Below are positions 12,945-46,594 of a stretch of DNA of 64,000 bases, piece after piece. Numbering within the stretch: position 1 is the first letter of the stretch; each line of letters opens with the position of its first letter. The notes under the pieces are model-generated. The model was given only the letters and a program-made list of their open reading frames with translations. It was not told the DNA's origin and searched no databases. This DNA comes from Thermoanaerobaculia bacterium (GTDB lineage Bacteria > Acidobacteriota > Thermoanaerobaculia > UBA5066). The translations under genes were made by a program, and so were the position numbers. The DNA lies in NCBI GenBank assembly GCA_963816185.1, contig CAWFJJ010000024.1, positions 160,001 through 224,000 of the forward strand. Direction: 5' to 3'.

Positions 12945-15738
12945 GATCCTCCCGCGCCGTCCTTCTCGCCCTGGGAGCGCTCCTCGTCGCGGCGCGCGGG
13001 TCCGCCGAGACGTTCTACGGAACGGGGATCGCCTCCCTGTCCTTTCGCGGCGACGCGCCGGTCGACGAACACCGGCTCGCGGCTCTGACCGAGCTCACGC
13101 CCGGCCGCACCCTGACGGGCGAGGCCGTGCGAACGAGCCTTCGCAACCTCTTCGCGACGCGTCTCTTCTCCGACCTCGCCGTCGAGGCATCGCCGTCGCC
13201 CGCCGGCTCCATCGTGGTCGTCGTCTTCTCGGCGGCGCCGCGGATCGAGCGTCTCGCGCTCTCCCCCGGAGTCCCCGCCGCGGGCCGCATTCTCGACGCC
13301 ATCGGCCTCGGACCCGGCAATCCGTGGCAAAGCGATCTCAGGCCGAAGTACGAGGCGGAGATCCGCCGCGTCCTGCGCGAGGAGGGCTATTTCGGTCCGA
13401 AGATCGCCACGGCGGTCGAGGCTGGCGCCGACGAAACTTCCGTGGACGTCCGGTTCGACGTGGAGAAGGGGCCGCGCGCCATCGCGGGAGCTCCCCGCTT
13501 CTCGGCCCCGCTCGGCCCCCTCGACGAAGCGACTCTGCTCGCGAAAGCGAAATCGAAGAGGGGCAAACCCTATCGCGGCACCGCGGCCCGGGAGGACGCC
13601 GAGCGCTTCGCGGCCGCTTACCGGCGCGCCGGATACTCGCGGGCGGAGGTGCGCCTCGACGACGAGCCGTACGACGCGGCCTCGGCGACCGTCACGCCTC
13701 ACTACGCGCTCTTCGTCGGGCCGCGAGTCGTCCTGAAGGTCACGGGCGAGAGCGAGAAGGTGGTGCGCGCGCACCCGGACTCGCCCTGGACGCGGGGCGA
13801 GCCTTCGGACGAAGACTCGCTTCAGCTCCTGAAGGACGGGCTCCGCCGCACGTATCAGGAAAAGGGTTACGCGCGCGCGAAGGTGGACGTCACGTTCGAA
13901 ACGACGGCGGACGAGGAGCTCGTGGCGTTCACGATCGAGAAAGGGGAGCGATGGACGATCTCCTCCGTGAAGGTGACCGGCGCCGCCAGCCTGCCCCGAA
14001 GGACGTCTTCGGCGCGCTCCAGATGCGCCCGCGCGGCCTCCTCGACGCCGGACGATACGTGGATGGAGACGCGGCGGCGGACCGTGACGCCCTCGAGGCG
14101 CTCTATCGCGCGAACGGGTTCCGGTACGCGAGGGTCTTGCCTCCGGTCGCGACGGAGGGCGCCTCACGGGACACCCTCGACGTGACGTTCAAGGTCGAGG
14201 AAGGGCTCCGCACGATCGTCGCGACGCGGACCGTGGCGGGCATCAAGACGGTGCCCGAGGACGTGCTCCTTCCGCGGCTCGCCGTCAAGGCCGGCCTCCC
14301 GTATTCGGAGTCCACGGTCAGCGACGACGCGGCTCTCCTGCAGTCCCTCTACGTGGATCGGGGCTACGTGGACGCGAAGGTGGAATCGTCCGTGCGCTTT
14401 CTGGAGCCGGTGCCGCCGGAGGGAGAGCGCGCGGAGGTGACGTACACCGTGACCGAGGGTCAACCCGTGACCTTCGGCAAGACGATTCTGCGTGGCAACC
14501 GGCGCACGCAGCCCTTCATCGTGGAGGACCGCCTCGCGAACAAGGAAGGCTCGCCTTTCTCGCTCACGAAGCTCCTCGAGACGCAGCAGAACCTCGCGCG
14601 CCTCGGCATCTTCCAGAAGATCGAGGTCTCGACGTTCCCGACCGACCCGGAGACCATGTCGCGGGCGGTGGTCGTCACCGTCTCCGAAGCGCGTCCGTGG
14701 AGCATCACGTACGGGATCGGCGCGGAATACCAGCCGCAGTCGCCCGGCACCGACCTCTCGGCGCGCCTTTCGCTCGGCGTGTCGTACAACAATCTCTTCG
14801 GCCGCGCCCTCGAGGTGAGCGGGGAAGGGCGCATCTCGAACCGCGACCCGCGGATCATCCTGTCCGCGCGCGACCGGTCGCTGTTCGGCGGCCTCGTTCC
14901 GGTCTCCGTGGCCGCGTACCGGACGAACGACTTCTTCTCGGACATCCTCGTGAAGCGAACGGGAGCCTTCCTTCAGGTGGAGTATCGCCCCTCGACCTCG
15001 CTGCGCACGGGCCTGCGCTACCAGTACGAGCTCGTCGATCCGAGCTCCGACCCCGGACTCGGCGCGGACCAGCGCGCGAACCAGCCGAGCCGCATCAGCT
15101 CGATCGCGGGCGGCGTGACCTGGGACCGGCGCGACGACCCACTGAACCCGCGCTCGGGCACGTTCCTCGCCGCGGACGTCAAGTACGCCTTTCCCTTCCT
15201 CGCGGCGGACGCGGACTTCGTCAAGACCCTGCTCCAGGCCGCGCTCTATCGCCCGTACGGGACGACACGGCTCGTCTTCTCGGTTCGCGGCGGCATCATC
15301 TGGAACCACCAGGCGTGCCCTCCGGAGCTGCAGGCGGCCGGGACGTGCTCTCCGAATCTGATCGTGCCCGTCCCGGAGCGGCTGTTCGCGGGCGGTTCGT
15401 CCACCCATCGCGCCTTTTCGCGCGACAATCTCGGCATCCCGGGGGAGACCCTGAACGCCGACGGCGTGGGCGAGGGCGGCACGGCGGAGCTCGTCGCGAA
15501 TGCCGAGTGGCGCATCCCGGTCGCGAGCGGATTCGAGGCGGCTCTCTTCTTCGACATCGGCAAGGTCTGGGCCGATCCGAGCAACGTGACCTTGAGTCAG
15601 CTCCGGTCCGGAGCCGGGCTCGGCCTCCACTATCAGACGCCGGTCGGTCCGATCCGACTCGAGTACGGCCTGAAGCTCGACCGCAAGCCGGGCGAGGACG
15701 CCGGGGCCTTCGCGTTCTCGGTCGGCTATCCCTTCTGA
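12941..15738 (+). CDS. Omp85 family (TamA/BamA-like) outer-membrane protein with multiple POTRA domains, frameshift near 13997
   Basis: Signal peptide, POTRA motifs (YRRAGY, YQEKGY, YVDRGY, GNRRT), ERLFAGGSSTHRAF, TPVGPIRLEYG, terminal FSVGYPF. Confidence 0.88.
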
Positions 15739-15748
15739 GGCCCGGGCT

Positions 15749-15759: not shown

Positions 15760-17239
15760 ATGCCCCGCTTCACGGTTCTCGAGACTTCGGCCCTCTTCTC
15801 GAACCGGGTCAAGTACGACTACCTGTTCGAGATGGAGATGTGGCTGAAAGGCCTCGAGCGGTTCTTCCAGATCGACTGCCTGCCGCTCTCGGCCTTCGAG
15901 CGTTCGCACGCGTCGCTCAAGAACTACGTGGAGGAGGTGGGCGCCGTGCGCGCCGGCGTGGCCTACATGGCGATGCTCACGACGCAGCTCCTCGGGGAGG
16001 GCAAGGAAGACCTCGCGTCGTTCCTCGTGTACCTGGACAGCCAGGTCGCGCGGACGGGCAGCGGCGAGATGCCTGCGCGCCGCCGCGGAGAACGCCGAGA
16101 CGGAGCTCGCGCTCGTCGTCGAGAAGCTCGAGGATTTCGCGAAGATCCTCGACGAGCTCTCGCGCGCGCCGTTCGTCGCGCTCCAGACGTATCTGTCGCT
16201 CGGCCGGATCGTGGTCGGCACGCTCCGGCAGGACCCGAATCTCGGCGTCCTCTTCCGCGAGAACCTGCGGCCGGTCCTCGACAAGGAGTCGAAGCAGTCG
16301 CTCGGCCGGGTGCTCGAGAGCCTGCCCGACCCTTCGCACCGGGGGGCGCTCGCGGCGCTCTTCGTCGCGCTCTTCAAGGGGTTGCGCTACGCGGACCGGG
16401 CTCGCACCGCCGCCGAGTCGCCCGCCACGCGCACCCGCGCGCTTCTCGTCTTCAGCCTCCTCAAGGGAGAGAGCGAGTCCATCGCCTCGTTCATCTCGAA
16501 GCGCCTCGCGCCGCGCTTCCCGGAGGGGTCGCCCCAGGCCGCCGGGCTGCGGCGCATCGTGACCGCGTTCGAGGCGGAGGTGAAGAAGGTCATGGACGTC
16601 GAGCTCGTCGACGTCGTGCTCATGAAGGATCCGGCTCTCGTCCTCACGCGCCTCGAGGATGCGGCCGCCCTCGTGCGCGACCTTTACCAGCAGAGCGTCA
16701 TCTCGCTCGCCGAGACCTTCTCGTCCGGGCTCGACGAGCGCACGCTCTTCCCCGAGTACCGGACGCGGCTCGACCAGAGCCTCGTTCTGAGGGACGAGCT
16801 CTCTCAGCTCGTGAAGGCGACCCATGATTTCGTGAAGACGCCCGACAAGAAATCGCTGCGGACTCTCGTGGCCGAGCTCGAGTCCTTCCGCCGGAGCGGG
16901 ATGCGCCACCTCATGTTCAAGGACTGGTCCTTGTTCGAGCGTTTCCTCGCCGGCTTCTCTCGCGAGCGGCCTCCGAGGTCCTTCCTGCCGGCCGCGCACC
17001 AGTTCGAGGGCTTTCTGAAGACTCTCGTCAAGGAGATCGGCAAAAGGTCCGTCCTCGCGAATCATCCCTTCAAGGGATTCCGCCTCGAGCGGCGGCTCGC
17101 CGGCTGGCGGGCCGGGCGCCTCCCGGTACAATTGACGGCTGGCGGCCGCCGCGCCGTCCCGATTCCGAAAGGAAGAAGAACGTGGGATTCGTTTCCGTCA
17201 CGCAGGCAGCGGCTGCCTACAAGCAGGGCCGCTTCGTGA
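15760..17239 (+). CDS. Hypothetical, largely alpha-helical protein (frameshift near 16085; true stop may be near 17100-17135)
   Basis: Genome-typical codon usage continues from the 15760 frame into the 16211 frame; no recognisable motif. Confidence 0.7.
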
Positions 17240-18385
17240 TCATCGTCGACGACGAGGATCGCGAGAACGAGGGCGACCTCTGCCTCGCGGCCGAGTACGT
17301 CACGCCGGCCGCGATCAACTTCATGGCCCGCGAGGGCCGCGGGCTCGTCTGCGTCTCGCTTGACGGAGGAGCGCTGCGACGAGCTGGATCTGCACCCGAT
17401 GGTCGAGCAGAACACGTCCAATTACGGGACGGCCTTCACCGTGTCCGTCGAGGCGCGCGGCAAGACCACGACCGGCATCTCGGCGGCCGACCGCGCGGTG
17501 ACGGTGAAGACGCTCATCGACCCGAAGACGAAGCCGCAAGACCTGCTGCGGCCCGGCCACACGTTCCCGCTGAGGGCGAGGAAGGGCGGCGTCCTCAAGC
17601 GGGCGGGCCAGACGGAGGCGTCCGTCGACCTCGCGCGCATCGCCGGCCTCATGCCCGCCGCCGTCATCTGCGAGATCATGAACGAGGACGGGACGATGGC
17701 CCGCGTGCCGGATCTCCTCGTCTTCTCGGAGAAGCACGGCGTCCCGATCGTCTCGGTGGCCGACATCATCCGCCACAGGATGCGCACGGAGCGCCTCGTG
17801 CAGCGCATCGCGTCCCCCACGCTGCCGACGCGCCACGGCTCGTTCCGCGTCGTCGCCTATCGGTCCGACGTCACGCACGAGGAGCACGTGGCGCTCGTGG
17901 CGGGAGAGTGGAGCGAGGACGAGCCCGTCCTCGTCCGCGTGCACTCCTCCTGCCTCACCGGCGACGTCTTCGGCTCGGAGCGCTGCGACTGCGGGGCGCA
18001 GCTCGAGCGCGCGATGGAGCTGATCGCGCGGGAGGGAAAGGGCGTGCTCCTCTATCTCCTTCAGGAGGGCCGCGGCATCGGCCTCGTGAACAAGCTGCGC
18101 GCCTACGAGCTGCAGGAGCAGGGCCTCGACACCGTCGCCGCGAACGAGAAGCTCGGCTTCGCGCCCGACGTCCGTGACTACGGCATCGGCTGCCAGATCC
18201 TGCGGGACCTCGGCGTGCGGAAGATCCGCCTCCTCACGAACAACCCGTCCAAGTACGTCGCGATCGACGGCTACGGCCTCGAGATCGTCGAGCGCGTCCC
18301 GCTCGAGATCCCTCCCACGGACGGCACGCGCGACTACCTGACCACGAAAAAAGCGAAGATGGGTCATATATTGAAATTGGTATGA
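17182..18385 (+). CDS. ribBA: Bifunctional DHBP synthase / GTP cyclohydrolase II (frameshift near 17360)
   Basis: [64 protein letters not shown]. Confidence 0.95.
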
Positions 18386-18465
18386 GCAGCTTCGGCCCGG
18401 GGGTCCGGGGGCGCCCGAAGGCAAGCCCCCGGAGAGCGATGGGGCACATCCTGAAGCTGGTCTAG
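18359..18465 (+). repeat. Synonymously recoded direct duplication of the ribBA 3' end (MGHILKLV*) at 18359-18385 and 18439-18465
   Basis: ATGGGTCATATATTGAAATTGGTATGA versus ATGGGGCACATCCTGAAGCTGGTCTAG. Confidence 0.9.
18399..18432 (+). repeat. G-tract hairpin (REP-like) repeat, copy 1
   Basis: GGGGGTCCGGGGGCGCCCGAAGGCAAGCCCCCGG, similar to 38715-38748. Confidence 0.7.
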
Positions 18466-18521
18466 AGGCGCAGGGGGAGGGGTCCGGGGATCTTAGAAGG
18501 AAGGGCCTGTGCGAGCGGCCG

Positions 18522-19261
18522 TCAGCGGCGATATCGCTCCGCAAGCTGCTCGGGCGATTCGCCCCGCCTCGCCTTCCAGAGGATCTTCCAGTTCCCGAGC
18601 ACGGTCTCGTGCGACGCCGCGCTCGAGGTAACGGCGTGGGGAGGTTTCCACCGCGTCCCGGAGAATCTCGATGCGCCCTTCTTTCTTGAGCCTCCTCGCG
18701 AAATCCCAGTCGTCGAGGAGCGGCCAGGGCGGATGGCCGCCGAGCTTCTCGTAGACGTCGCGCCTGACGAACGGAGCCTGGTCGCCGTACGGAACGCGCG
18801 TGAACGCCGTGCGGGCATTCGCCCAGAAGGCGACCCAGCGCATGCGCGCGCCGCCGCCGGAGAAAGACAGCCGGAACGCGCCGCCGACGGCCCGCGAGGC
18901 GATCGCGCGGCGGATCGCCTGCTCCCAGCCGGCGGGCAGCAGCGTGTCGGCGTGAAGAAAGAGGAAGATGTCTGCTGAAGAGGAAGAAGAAGAGGAAGAA
19001 GACGATTCTTTGAAGGTGAAGAGGGCCGCCTCGCGCAGGCGCTGTCCGCGCGCCGCGTGCGACAGGTGGATACGAGCCCCTGCACGCGCGAAGGCCTCAC
19101 ACACATTCGAAGAAATCTCCGAATCTGCCGCGACGACGAGCGAAACGGGTCCCGCCGCCTGCCAGAACCCTCTCGAAGAAAATCCCCGGTGGGGGACCTT
19201 CGCCGGCCGCCACGGGGACGATGACCGCGATGCGATCCGAAGCCGGCGACGGCGGTACCAT
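18522..19261 (-). CDS. Family 2 glycosyltransferase (TIGR04283-like), frameshifted
   Basis: IAVIVPV, FLFLHADTLLP, PYGDQAPFVRRDVYEKLGG, DDWDFARRL, TSPRRY; start uncertain. Confidence 0.82.
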
Positions 19262-19270
19262 CCCGCCACG

Positions 19271-20020
19271 ATGCCATACGGGTTCGTCCTCGTGGGCGGT
19301 CGCTCGGAGCGGATGGGCCGCGACAAGACGCGCCTGCCCTACCGGGGAGTCCCGATGGCGCTCCATCAGGCCGAGAAGCTCGCGGTCGTGTGCGGGCGCG
19401 TCGCCCTCGTCGGGAAGGACCCCAAGGCGTTCGGCGACTCCCGCTTTCCCTACGTGACCGACGGTGCGCCCGAGGCGGCCGCGGCGTTCGGCGTCGCCGC
19501 GGCTCTCGCGTTCTCGCCGGAGGAGACGAATCTCGTCCTCGCGGCGGACGTGCCGCGCTGCCCCGAGTCGTTTCTCGCGGCTCTCCTGGACGTCGCCGAA
19601 GCGATTCACGCGCCCGCCGTGGTGCCGGTCTCGGGCGGGCGGGCGCAGCCGCTCTGCGCCGTGTGGCGGCGGTCCGCGCTCGGGCCGCTCCGCTCGCGGC
19701 TCGAGGCCGGCGATTACTCTCTCATCGCGGCGCTCCATGCTTTTCACGCCGTGCTCATCCCCGAGGAGGTCACGGCCGCGATGGCCGGAGGCGCTCCGGC
19801 GAATTTCTTCAACGTCAACACCCCGGAGGAATATGAAGAGCTCGAAAGGGAAGCCCCGGCGGAAGGCCGCGACCGGCGCGGCCGCTCAGCCACCTCGACG
19901 CTGAGGGCCGGGCCCGCATGGTCGACGTGTCGCTCAAGCGGCCGACCCTCCGCACGGCCCGCGCCCGCGCTCTCGTGTCGCTCGGCGGGGCCGCCTTTCT
20001 CGCGCTCGACGCCGCCGTGA
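19271..20020 (+). CDS. mobA: Molybdenum cofactor guanylyltransferase (homology ends near 19850; run-on due to an indel)
   Basis: GFVLVGGRSERMGRDK, LVLAADVP, QPLCAVW, FFNVNTPEEY. Confidence 0.88.
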   Translation: MPYGFVLVGGRSERMGRDKTRLPYRGVPMALHQAEKLAVVCGRVALVGKDPKAFGDSRFPYVTDGAPEAAAAFGVAAALAFSPEETNLVLAADVPRCPESFLAALLDVAEAIHAPAVVPVSGGRAQPLCAVWRRSALGPLRSRLEAGDYSLIAALHAFHAVLIPEEVTAAMAGGAPANFFNVNTPEEYEELEREAPAEGRDRRGRSATSTLRAGPAWSTCRSSGRPSARPAPALSCRSAGPPFSRSTPP

Positions 20021-24112: not shown

Positions 24113-24613
24113 AGCTCATCGAGGCGTTCGTGAAGGCCGGGCTCGAGTGTGGGCTCCCTCAAGCACACGGACCACGAGTACGAGACGGACGCCCCCGGCA
24201 AGGACTCGCAGCGCCACAAGGCGGCGGGCGCCGAACCCGCGGTCCTCGTCGCCGGGCGGAGAAGCGCGGTGCATCGCGGGCCATCGGAGACTTCTGCTTC
24301 GGACCCGGGTGCGGGCGCCGGCGAGGCTCGCGAGAGACCAGCTCTGTCCGTTTTCTTAGAAGGGGAATATGGGCTTGGCTCGTGTGACATCGTCGTCGTC
24401 GAGGGGTTCCGAAGCGAGGCGTATCCGAAGATCGAAGTCTGCCGCGCGGCCACTGGCCGCGCGGCACTCTGCGAGAACGATCCAAACGTCGTCGCCGTCG
24501 TGACCGACCGGCCGACGAATCACCCTTCTTCCATTCCCCGATTCACTTTCGAAGAAATCCCCGGTTCCCTTCTTCCCTTTCTAAGAAGATCTTCAATTCT
24601 CTTTTCTCTCTAA
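24058..24613 (+). CDS. mobB: Molybdopterin-guanine dinucleotide biosynthesis protein B (no own start codon; frameshift near 24150)
   Basis: Walker A motif VTGAHESGKTT, LKHTDH, GKDSQRH..AGA, DIVVVEGFR..PKIEV, VVAVVTD. Confidence 0.82.
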
Positions 24614-24652
24614 GAAATCCCCGGTCTTCTCCTCTTTCTAGGACAATCCCGG
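24546..24652 (+). repeat. Tandem copies of AAGAAATCCCCGGT with pyrimidine tracts
   Basis: GAAGAAATCCCCGGTTCCCTTCTTCCCTTTCTA at 24551 and TAAGAAATCCCCGGTCTTCTCCTCTTTCTA at 24611. Confidence 0.75.
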
Positions 24653-45947: not shown

Positions 45948-46023
45948 GCTGGCGTAGCTCAATGGGTAGAGCAGCCGATTTGTAATCGGCAGGTTGCGGG
46001 TTCGAGTCCCATCGCCAGCTCCA
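45948..46023 (+). tRNA. tRNA-Thr(TGT)
   Basis: Cloverleaf; anticodon arm GCCGA-TTTGTAA-TCGGC; TTCGA T-loop; encoded CCA. Confidence 0.95.
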
Positions 46024-46072
46024 GGGTGAGCCTCCGAGGGCCGGAGATCGGGATCGACGAAGAACGGGGAGC

Positions 46073-46161
46073 GGGCAGATGGCCGAGCGGTTAATGGCAG
46101 CAGACTGTAAATCTGCCGCACCTTGCGTGCTACGGGGGTTCGAATCCCTCTCTGCCCACCA
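46073..46161 (+). tRNA. tRNA-Tyr(GTA)
   Basis: GCAGA-CTGTAAA-TCTGC; long variable arm; encoded CCA. Confidence 0.95.
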
Positions 46162-46210
46162 TCTTTCGCGGCGCGAAAGATGGTGGACAGCTGCCGGCTA
46201 TTTTTTTCTC

Positions 46211-46237
46211 GGGGGTACTGTCCCCCCGAACCCCCCC
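46211..46237 (-). repeat. G-tract hairpin repeat, copy 3
   Basis: Reverse strand reads GGGGGGGTTCGGGGGGACAGTACCCCC. Confidence 0.55.
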
Positions 46238-46255
46238 ACAGGAAAAAGTACGCCG

Positions 46256-46331
46256 GCCCACGTAGCTCAGTTGGTAGAGCACGTCCTTGGTAAGGACGGG
46301 GTCAGCAGTTCAAATCTGCTCGTGGGCTCCA
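46256..46331 (+). tRNA. tRNA-Thr(GGT)
   Basis: Anticodon loop TTGGTAA; acceptor stem GCCCACG/CGTGGGC; encoded CCA. Confidence 0.95.
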
Positions 46332-46346
46332 GCTACGTTTTCTCCA

Positions 46347-46381
46347 GGGGGAACCCGGGGGTCGGGTTCCCCCAAGCCCCC
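46347..46381 (-). repeat. G-tract hairpin repeat, copy 4
   Basis: Reverse strand reads GGGGGCTTGGGGGAACCCGACCCCCGGGTTCCCCC. Confidence 0.55.
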
Positions 46382-46418
46382 TCCGCACCAATCGCTCACT
46401 TCTTCACGGCTTCCTTTC

Positions 46419-46493
46419 GCGGGAGTAACTCAGGGGTAGAGTCACAGCCTTCCAAGCTGTTGGTCGCGGGTTCGAATCCCGTCTCCCGCTCCA
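46419..46493 (+). tRNA. tRNA-Gly(TCC)
   Basis: ACAGC-CTTCCAA-GCTGT; acceptor stem GCGGGAG/CTCCCGC; encoded CCA. Confidence 0.95.
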
Positions 46494-46516
46494 AGAGCTT
46501 CTTTCGACCTTCTCAC

Positions 46517-46594
46517 AGGGGTGTAGCTCCAACTGGCTAGAGCGGCGGTCTCCAAAACCGTAGGTTCGGGGTTCGAATCCCCGCACCCCTGCCA
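46517..46594 (+). tRNA. tRNA-Trp(CCA)
   Basis: GCGGT-CTCCAAA-ACCGT; acceptor stem AGGGGTG/CACCCCT; directly upstream of secE. Confidence 0.95.

Follow-up and report, generated by a model that had tools for sequence, protein, structure and literature searches.

In Escherichia coli K-12, e14 supplies the end of icd and leaves icdC behind, and the differences between the two ends are outlined as largely synonymous (PMC13626634). A second kind of structure, the CIME, is described in outline as a decayed element that has retained attL and attR and lost its genes (PMC5704250). We analysed a 64-kb stretch of DNA (the window) in which the end of the ribBA gene is present twice, and compared this locus with both systems. 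It resembles icd with e14 or phage 21, where, in the same outline, a replacement 3′ end keeps the gene whole, the original end is displaced as a fragment and the differences are mostly synonymous (PMC13626634). The two cases differ in scale, since e14 is sketched there as a prophage of 15.1 kb that brings its recombination functions with it and excises on SOS induction, whereas the ribBA insert is geneless and 80 nt long, with no recombinase found in 64 kb. Unlike the ends at icd, every degenerate codon differs at ribBA, and the codons of the tail are alien to the genome. As with a CIME, in the general description of such elements, any mobility of the ribBA insert would need a recombinase in trans (PMC5704250), and the geneless, repeat-bounded structure fits. 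Unlike a CIME, the site carries no related autonomous element in the scanned relatives, the cognate element was not found in plasmids, phages or the relatives' downstream ORFs, and the identical repeat is only 6 nt. Described CIMEs are also far larger than the 80-nt ribBA insert. A further parallel comes from engineering practice: in synthetic-genome refactoring an overlapped segment is duplicated and one copy is synonymously recoded, and ribBA likewise shows a pair of neighbouring copies, of which one is swapped at every degenerate codon. This is a look-alike only, because the DNA belongs to an environmental Thermoanaerobaculia-like assembly, there is no overlapping gene to separate, and the trailer behind the gene end is also duplicated and diverged.

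The ribBA gene encodes a bifunctional DHBP synthase / GTP cyclohydrolase II and lies on the plus strand at 17182..18385, split into two frames by a 1-nt insertion near 17359 relative to the closest relative, L001. It carries the Pfam domains PF00926 (DHBP_synthase) and PF00925 (GTP_cyclohydro2) and matches NCBIfam NF006803. Read through the frame break, RibBA has 400 aa and is 98% identical to P0001, and close RibBA homologues in public data are intact 400-aa proteins. We found that the tail MGHILKLV* is encoded twice, at 18359-18385 (ATGGGTCATATATTGAAATTGGTATGA) and at 18439-18465 (ATGGGGCACATCCTGAAGCTGGTCTAG), with a start-to-start spacing of 80 nt. The copies differ at 9 of 27 bases, all of them silent, and all 7 degenerate sense codons as well as the stop codon are changed. 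The ribBA reading frame ends in the first copy, whose label as the copy in use presumes that the break near 17359 is a sequencing error. The second copy, hereafter the orphan, lies 53 nt beyond the stop codon and out of frame with ribBA (80 mod 3 = 2). Frame 0, followed past the ribBA stop, fails to reach the orphan in frame, and an extension of the protein by stop-codon readthrough was set aside because the orphan is out of frame. A perfect 9-bp hairpin (18404-18412 / 18425-18433) was located between the copies, and GGAG at 18431-18434 stands 4 nt upstream of the orphan ATG. An earlier note on this DNA, made from the sequence alone, had reported two copies 80 bp apart with nine silent differences in 27 bases and a hairpin repeat between them; this description proved exact.

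The same note had called for a search of the genome for other recoded C-terminal duplications. We ran it across the 64-kb window by six-frame translation, chaining shared 6-mer peptides at most 400 nt apart. The ribBA pair appeared as four chained 6-mer hits, which cover the whole 8-residue tail and the stop, and it was the only recoded peptide repeat of more than 7 residues within 400 nt; no other pair of gene ends was recovered. The remaining hits were single or double and came from Arg/Pro/Ser-rich off-frame translations, and they were rejected as chance low complexity. The recoded duplicate gene end was confirmed as a real feature of the sequence, and it is a single instance, known only from one error-prone assembly.

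Codon counts over 7734 codons from 18 confident window genes bore out the claim that the copy in use has AT-rich, alien codons and the orphan typical ones. In these genes ATA makes up 1 of 355 Ile codons, TTG 9 of 754 Leu codons, GTA 11 of 661 Val codons, GGT 41 of 660 Gly codons and AAA 47 of 426 Lys codons, and the product of the codon frequencies was 8.5e-12 for the tail in use versus 4e-3 for the orphan. The GC content of the first copy is 30%, versus 68.4% for the window, where equally AT-rich 27-mers account for 0.03% of the total. Judged by codon shares, the AT-rich patch covers the last 12 codons and the stop (18346..18385), with the recoded tail in use at 18359-18385; its AAA AAA at 18346-18351, left of the GATGGG core shared by the two copies, reads AAG AAG in L001-L004. 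The synonymous sites of the tail are changed at 8 of 8 positions, against the codon bias of the genome and to a greater extent than the adjacent non-coding trailer. Lower-GC ribBA genes resemble the patch in blastn-short (L043 at 20 of 22 bases, L021 at 27 of 32), and these matches show that AT-rich codons of this kind are ordinary in lower-GC genomes; they identify no donor. The exact tail MGHILKLV was present only in L001 and L002 among the 80 related loci and in 20 of 120 close homologues, and it belongs to this high-GC clade. A tail made of the genome's rarest codons thus stands next to a native-like trailer of 77% GC, an odd combination if the structure is real.

Relatives were collected by scanning genome contigs with the RibBA protein, which gave 80 loci, 73 of them holding at least 1.5 kb downstream of ribBA. 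The closest relatives of the window are Thermoanaerobaculia/Acidobacteriota MAGs, and L001, the closest, is a Thermoanaerobaculia MAG with 89.4-89.8% nt identity over 7.3 kb. L001 has a single tail, ATGGGGCACATCCTGAAGCTGGTC followed by TGA, whose sense bases are identical to the orphan at 24 of 24 positions. Its gene end reads ..AAGATGGGGCACATCCTGAAGCTGGTC plus the stop and then passes directly into a spacer orthologous to the one behind the orphan. No second tail-like peptide (at most 2 mismatches in 8) was found within 1.5 kb downstream at any of the 80 loci. Relative to all of these loci the window carries an insertion: because L001 has one tail identical to the orphan and none of the 80 loci has two, the orphan is the ancestral end and 18359-18438 are 80 inserted nucleotides. 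The insertion supplies the working tail and has displaced the ancestral one, as the empty site in L001 supports. Its position can slide only within the 6 nt GATGGG, which stands as a direct repeat on both sides (18358..18363 and 18438..18443, both identified in the sequence and by a repeat scan, as family D1). An empty site in related genomes and an insertion at the shared GATGGG, both put forward in the earlier note, were found as described, with L001 empty and 80 of 80 loci single-tailed. The larger inserts with an integrase that were to be looked for at the ribBA ends of relatives were not found: no integrase or transposase domain (E <= 1e-8) was detected in 100 ORFs downstream of ribBA from 50 related loci, these being 100 of the 153 ORFs chosen as the two longest within 3 kb of ribBA.

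Other differences from relatives were seen in this neighbourhood. The gap between ribBA and the following glycosyltransferase gene is variable, with an extra 1.2-1.9 kb in L002 (5027-6870), L004 (5028-6184) and L003 (5027-6431). Mobile-element genes were considered as the source of this extra DNA and rejected, as it carries PKD/CARDB in L002 and L004 and a Ser/Thr kinase with a receiver domain in L003. About 426 nt of L001 (1949-2375), between a bamA-like gene and the next ORF, are absent from the window at 15739-15743. The glycosyltransferase gene itself is TIGR04283-like, convergent with ribBA and located on the minus strand at 18522..19338, with its stop at 18522-18524 and a frame break near 18606; NCBIfam TIGR04283 positions 69-197 fall in the frame of 18496-19338 and the conserved C-terminus in the frame of 18522-19277. 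Within its region a GAA/GAG-rich repeat (18962-19002) differs from L001 by in-frame lengths of 6, 3 and 6 nt.

Alignment of the inserted DNA with the DNA behind it shows a relationship that is newly recognised here: the insert is a diverged, in-register homologue of the entire next 80 nt, tail and 53-nt trailer alike. The inserted trailer (18386..18438, 77% GC) and the resident intergenic spacer (18466..18521), which is homologous to the L001 spacer as well, share the 11-mer GGGGTCCGGGG, found only at 18400-18410 and 18479-18489 in 64 kb, 79 nt apart. Both also have GAAGG and GAGCG in near register, with 30 of 52 bases identical at offset -1, and about 32 of 53 bases are identical in the trailer alignment. 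Of 39923 pairs of 53-nt segments drawn at random from the window, 35 had a run of at least 11 nt in common within +/-3 nt of register; of 2915 G-rich segments set against the resident spacer, 0 shared a run of at least 9 nt; and 37 of 2000 shuffles reached the global alignment score of the trailers. The locus is made of two head-to-tail units, each consisting of a tail and nearly the whole intergenic spacer, and the resident unit stops 3-4 nt short of the glycosyltransferase stop codon. The register is that of a recent tandem duplication; high identity is missing, as gapless identity at lag 80 is 45%, and Tandem Repeats Finder is silent here. The inserted trailer and the L001 spacer have small blocks in common that are absent from the resident spacer (GAAGGCAA vs GAAAGCAA), which is weak evidence. 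An att scar would account for the homology of the units, but a xenologous duplication in tandem fits it equally well.

The comparison with L001 also bears on timing. Third codon positions of ribBA differ from L001 at 44 of 333 sites, and the chance of zero change at the 24 orphan sites, if all were neutral at 13%, is about 0.035. The orphan, unchanged at 24 of 24 positions, is therefore young or has not long been free to drift. The inserted unit is changed at 8 of 8 free tail positions and at roughly 40% of its trailer. Since all 8 degenerate positions of its tail are changed, it cannot have diverged in place since the split from L001; it would either have arrived already diverged or have been changed by strong selection on the sequence.

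We put a probability of roughly 0.4 on the reading that an already diverged replacement tail was acquired and inserted at a short core, leaving a cargo-less scar comparable to e14-icd/icdC and to a CIME. The incoming 80-nt unit (18359-18438), holding the last 8 ribBA codons, the stop and the 53-nt trailer, would have diverged before arrival and entered the resident ribBA by recombination over the 6-nt core GATGGG, precisely where the two sequences correspond. It would now terminate ribBA with the same eight residues, and the resident end would have been shifted 80 nt downstream as an untranslated relic. Any cargo would have been lost, with only the duplicated gene end, of the attL/attR type, left behind. 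The comparisons show the insertion relative to all relatives, the homology between the units, the alien codons of the tail in use and an orphan that is intact; from these we infer that the unit came from outside, from an element or a related lineage, that it recombined at the core and that any cargo was lost; the 80-nt scar is expected to be without activity of its own today. Because conservative site-specific recombination by its nature yields a pure insertion at the corresponding point, flanked by a short direct repeat, we lean slightly towards a site-specific recombinase acting in trans over a one-off illegitimate join.

The properties of an integrative element that were found at the locus are the direct-repeat bounds with a short core, the empty site and a replacement end that keeps the protein whole; an adjoining recombinase in 64 kb and cargo-filled sites in relatives (100 ORFs, 50 loci) were not found. 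Among 122 window ORFs (at least 100 aa, GC3 > 0.74; 64 kb), none carried an integrase, recombinase, transposase or reverse-transcriptase Pfam domain, in agreement with the claim that no recombinase is nearby. As no 1-kb stretch of the window falls below 60% GC, the GC3 filter hid no AT-rich island. The two origins named in the earlier note fared differently from its observations. A minimal 80-bp integrative element lost support, with no integrase or transposase, no terminal inverted repeats, no second copy in the window and no plasmid or phage match, and a remnant of a larger low-GC element did not agree with the composition, as low GC is limited to the coding tail and the 53-nt trailer is 77% GC. 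What endures of that interpretation is the empty site, the displaced original tail and the GATGGG bounds; the label of an integrative element lacks its defining gene.

Searches for related copies were negative in the sets covered. A MITE or small transposon was rejected, as the termini of the insert, TCATATATTG... and ...CCGGAGAGC, do not form inverted repeats and the window has one copy only. A 22-mer of the trailer matched the window once, at itself, and the G-tract and hairpin were rejected as a repeat family, the 22-mer being unique and the 11-mer confined to the two units. Plasmid and phage collections queried with 18330-18470 gave no match, and when the patch and the two trailers were compared with the 80 loci by blastn-short, nothing significant came back, only chance 11-16-mers and coding look-alikes. 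A diversity-generating retroelement was rejected as well, since the differences (T/G, T/C, A/C and A/G) run both ways and are silent, and the window ORFs contain no RT domain.

At the RNA level, Rfam gave 0 matches at E <= 5 for 18250-18600, our scans detected no promoter-like or terminator-like site around the trailer, and the fold of 18340-18530 was no more stable than shuffles (z = 0.35). The structured RNAs of the whole window are 5 tRNAs only. They form a cluster at 45948-46591, upstream of nusG-rplK-rplA-rplJ-rplL-rpoB-rpoC, with neither partial copies of a tRNA nor signs of an island in evidence. A motif, AAGAAATCCCCGG, recurs intergenically, twice and 60 nt apart, at 24546-24625, which is the lowest-GC stretch of the window. 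Variants of it were seen at 19180-19189 (AAATCCCCGG) and, inverted, on the minus strand at 18484-18494 just after the orphan (AAGATCCCCGG); these sites may have a role in regulation or termination in common.

Several points weigh against an acquired replacement tail. The shared core is only 6 nt, the occurrence is single, and no recombinase was detected in the scanned ORFs of the window or of relatives. An AT-rich tail and a GC-rich trailer would not easily come from one foreign source. The AT shift begins left of the core, at AAA AAA, and a crossover at GATGGG leaves that unaccounted for. If the element was once larger, a deletion must have ended within a few nucleotides of the right core.

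A somewhat unlikely alternative is that the 3′ end of ribBA from a related lineage was taken up as free DNA and inserted once by illegitimate, homology-facilitated recombination, with the left side anchored in the shared coding sequence and the right side joined without homology. Homology-facilitated illegitimate recombination and short-patch insertion of foreign DNA in natural transformation are known from laboratory experiments; such events have one junction in homology and the other without, and they make a dedicated element unnecessary. This explanation accords with the recombinase-negative ORF scans, and AAA AAA left of the core could be a donor-type conversion tract. Tails of the form MGH[I/L]LK[L/M]V are common in the clade, the 20 of 120 close homologues above ending in exactly MGHILKLV, and mosaic RibBA proteins occur among close relatives (P0040, P0002). 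However, a pure insertion placed precisely at the corresponding point, such as is seen at ribBA, is not what this process predicts: by our estimate, a right junction exactly at the recipient position of the left junction is roughly 1 in 80 of the viable outcomes. Moreover, no donor with this tail was found, and relatives of 60-72% GC have GC-rich tails. An acquired replacement tail and a one-off illegitimate insertion both rest on the core claim that the homologous DNA is foreign; what separates them is the enzyme.

The mosaic proteins were seen in their own right. P0040, a protein of 429 aa encoded on a contig of 2018 nt, has about 97% identity to the window RibBA in its first ~318 residues, and its last ~110 residues switch to a very different RibBA lineage; in P0002 the first ~50 residues are divergent. 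They represent either mosaic ribBA alleles or chimeric short contigs.

We consider it unlikely that the 80-nt unit was tandemly duplicated in place and that its upstream copy then came under selection at the level of the nucleotide sequence. The units do stand head to tail in register, such an origin makes donor and recombinase unnecessary, and the two upstream Lys codons are also shifted to the rare AAA. Synonymous change in the tail (8 of 8) exceeds change in the trailer (~32 of 53 identical), and this excess argues for selection on the sequence itself. The selection might have destroyed a DNA or RNA recognition site while the protein was kept, or removed the homology through which the duplication could be deleted. 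Against this, none of the 80 loci, L001 included, has the arrangement, the orphan shows no change from L001, and a unit divergence of ~35-40% would be needed in less time than the 13% divergence of third positions. In addition, no targeting agent is known, and the blocks that the inserted trailer shares with the L001 spacer and not with the resident spacer also tell, weakly, against an origin in place.

An equally unlikely explanation is an assembly or polishing artefact, in which the same 80 nt existed as two alleles in strains that occurred together, both were stacked in the consensus, and the organism has one. The quality of the consensus gives this some weight. In addition to the ribBA break, bamA changes frame near 13999 through a 1-nt indel relative to L001, the glycosyltransferase gene has one nucleotide more than L001 at 18606, and dxs switches frame at least 4 times between 3296 and 5124. 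The breaks cluster in the first 19 kb, and rplA, rpoB and rpoC, further along the window, are whole. Because several essential genes are broken, these breaks are read as consensus errors and not as pseudogenes; they look less like decaying genes than like patchy errors of the consensus, caused by low coverage or a mixture of strains. An artefact at the ribBA site becomes more probable for the same reason, the patchiness is what mixed strains would produce, and the two units are alignable and of similar length, as alleles would be. On the other hand, the junction overlap of 6 nt is far under any assembler k-mer or overlap, and consensus methods that choose one path are not known to stack alleles; nor is any assembler or polisher known to us to place two 80-nt alleles one behind the other over a 6-nt overlap. 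Tandem Repeats Finder and a lag scan of 40-400 nt detected no further stacked, diverged tandem in the window, and an artefact would still require a natural AT-rich allele, which would be no easier to explain.

It is highly improbable, in our judgement, that the recoding is adaptive, with the ancestral ATGGGGCACATCCTGAAGCTGGTC as the target of an integrase or homing-type nuclease, a recoded gene end that would evade recognition and an intact orphan that would serve as a harmless decoy outside the essential gene. The other suggestion of the earlier note, that the orphan is a working 8-residue micropeptide gene, is barely credible: GGAG precedes its ATG and stop codon, but the 4-nt spacing is short, the scan gave no promoter-like site, the orphan is simply the ancestral gene end, with 24 of 24 bases as in the tail within the L001 gene, and a separate ORF of this kind exists in 0 of 80 relatives.

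If the structure is an artefact, it usefully warns that consensus sequences from long-read metagenomes can contain small stacked alleles. If it is real, it would be the smallest replacement-tail scar known to us and a natural gene end with a swap at each free codon position and an unaltered protein. Synonymous change above that of the neighbouring non-coding DNA would point to selection on the DNA sequence, and the adaptive reading, if true, would amount to target-site immunity by synonymous recoding together with a decoy attB. Replacement-tail scars mark harmless entry sites of foreign DNA in essential genes.
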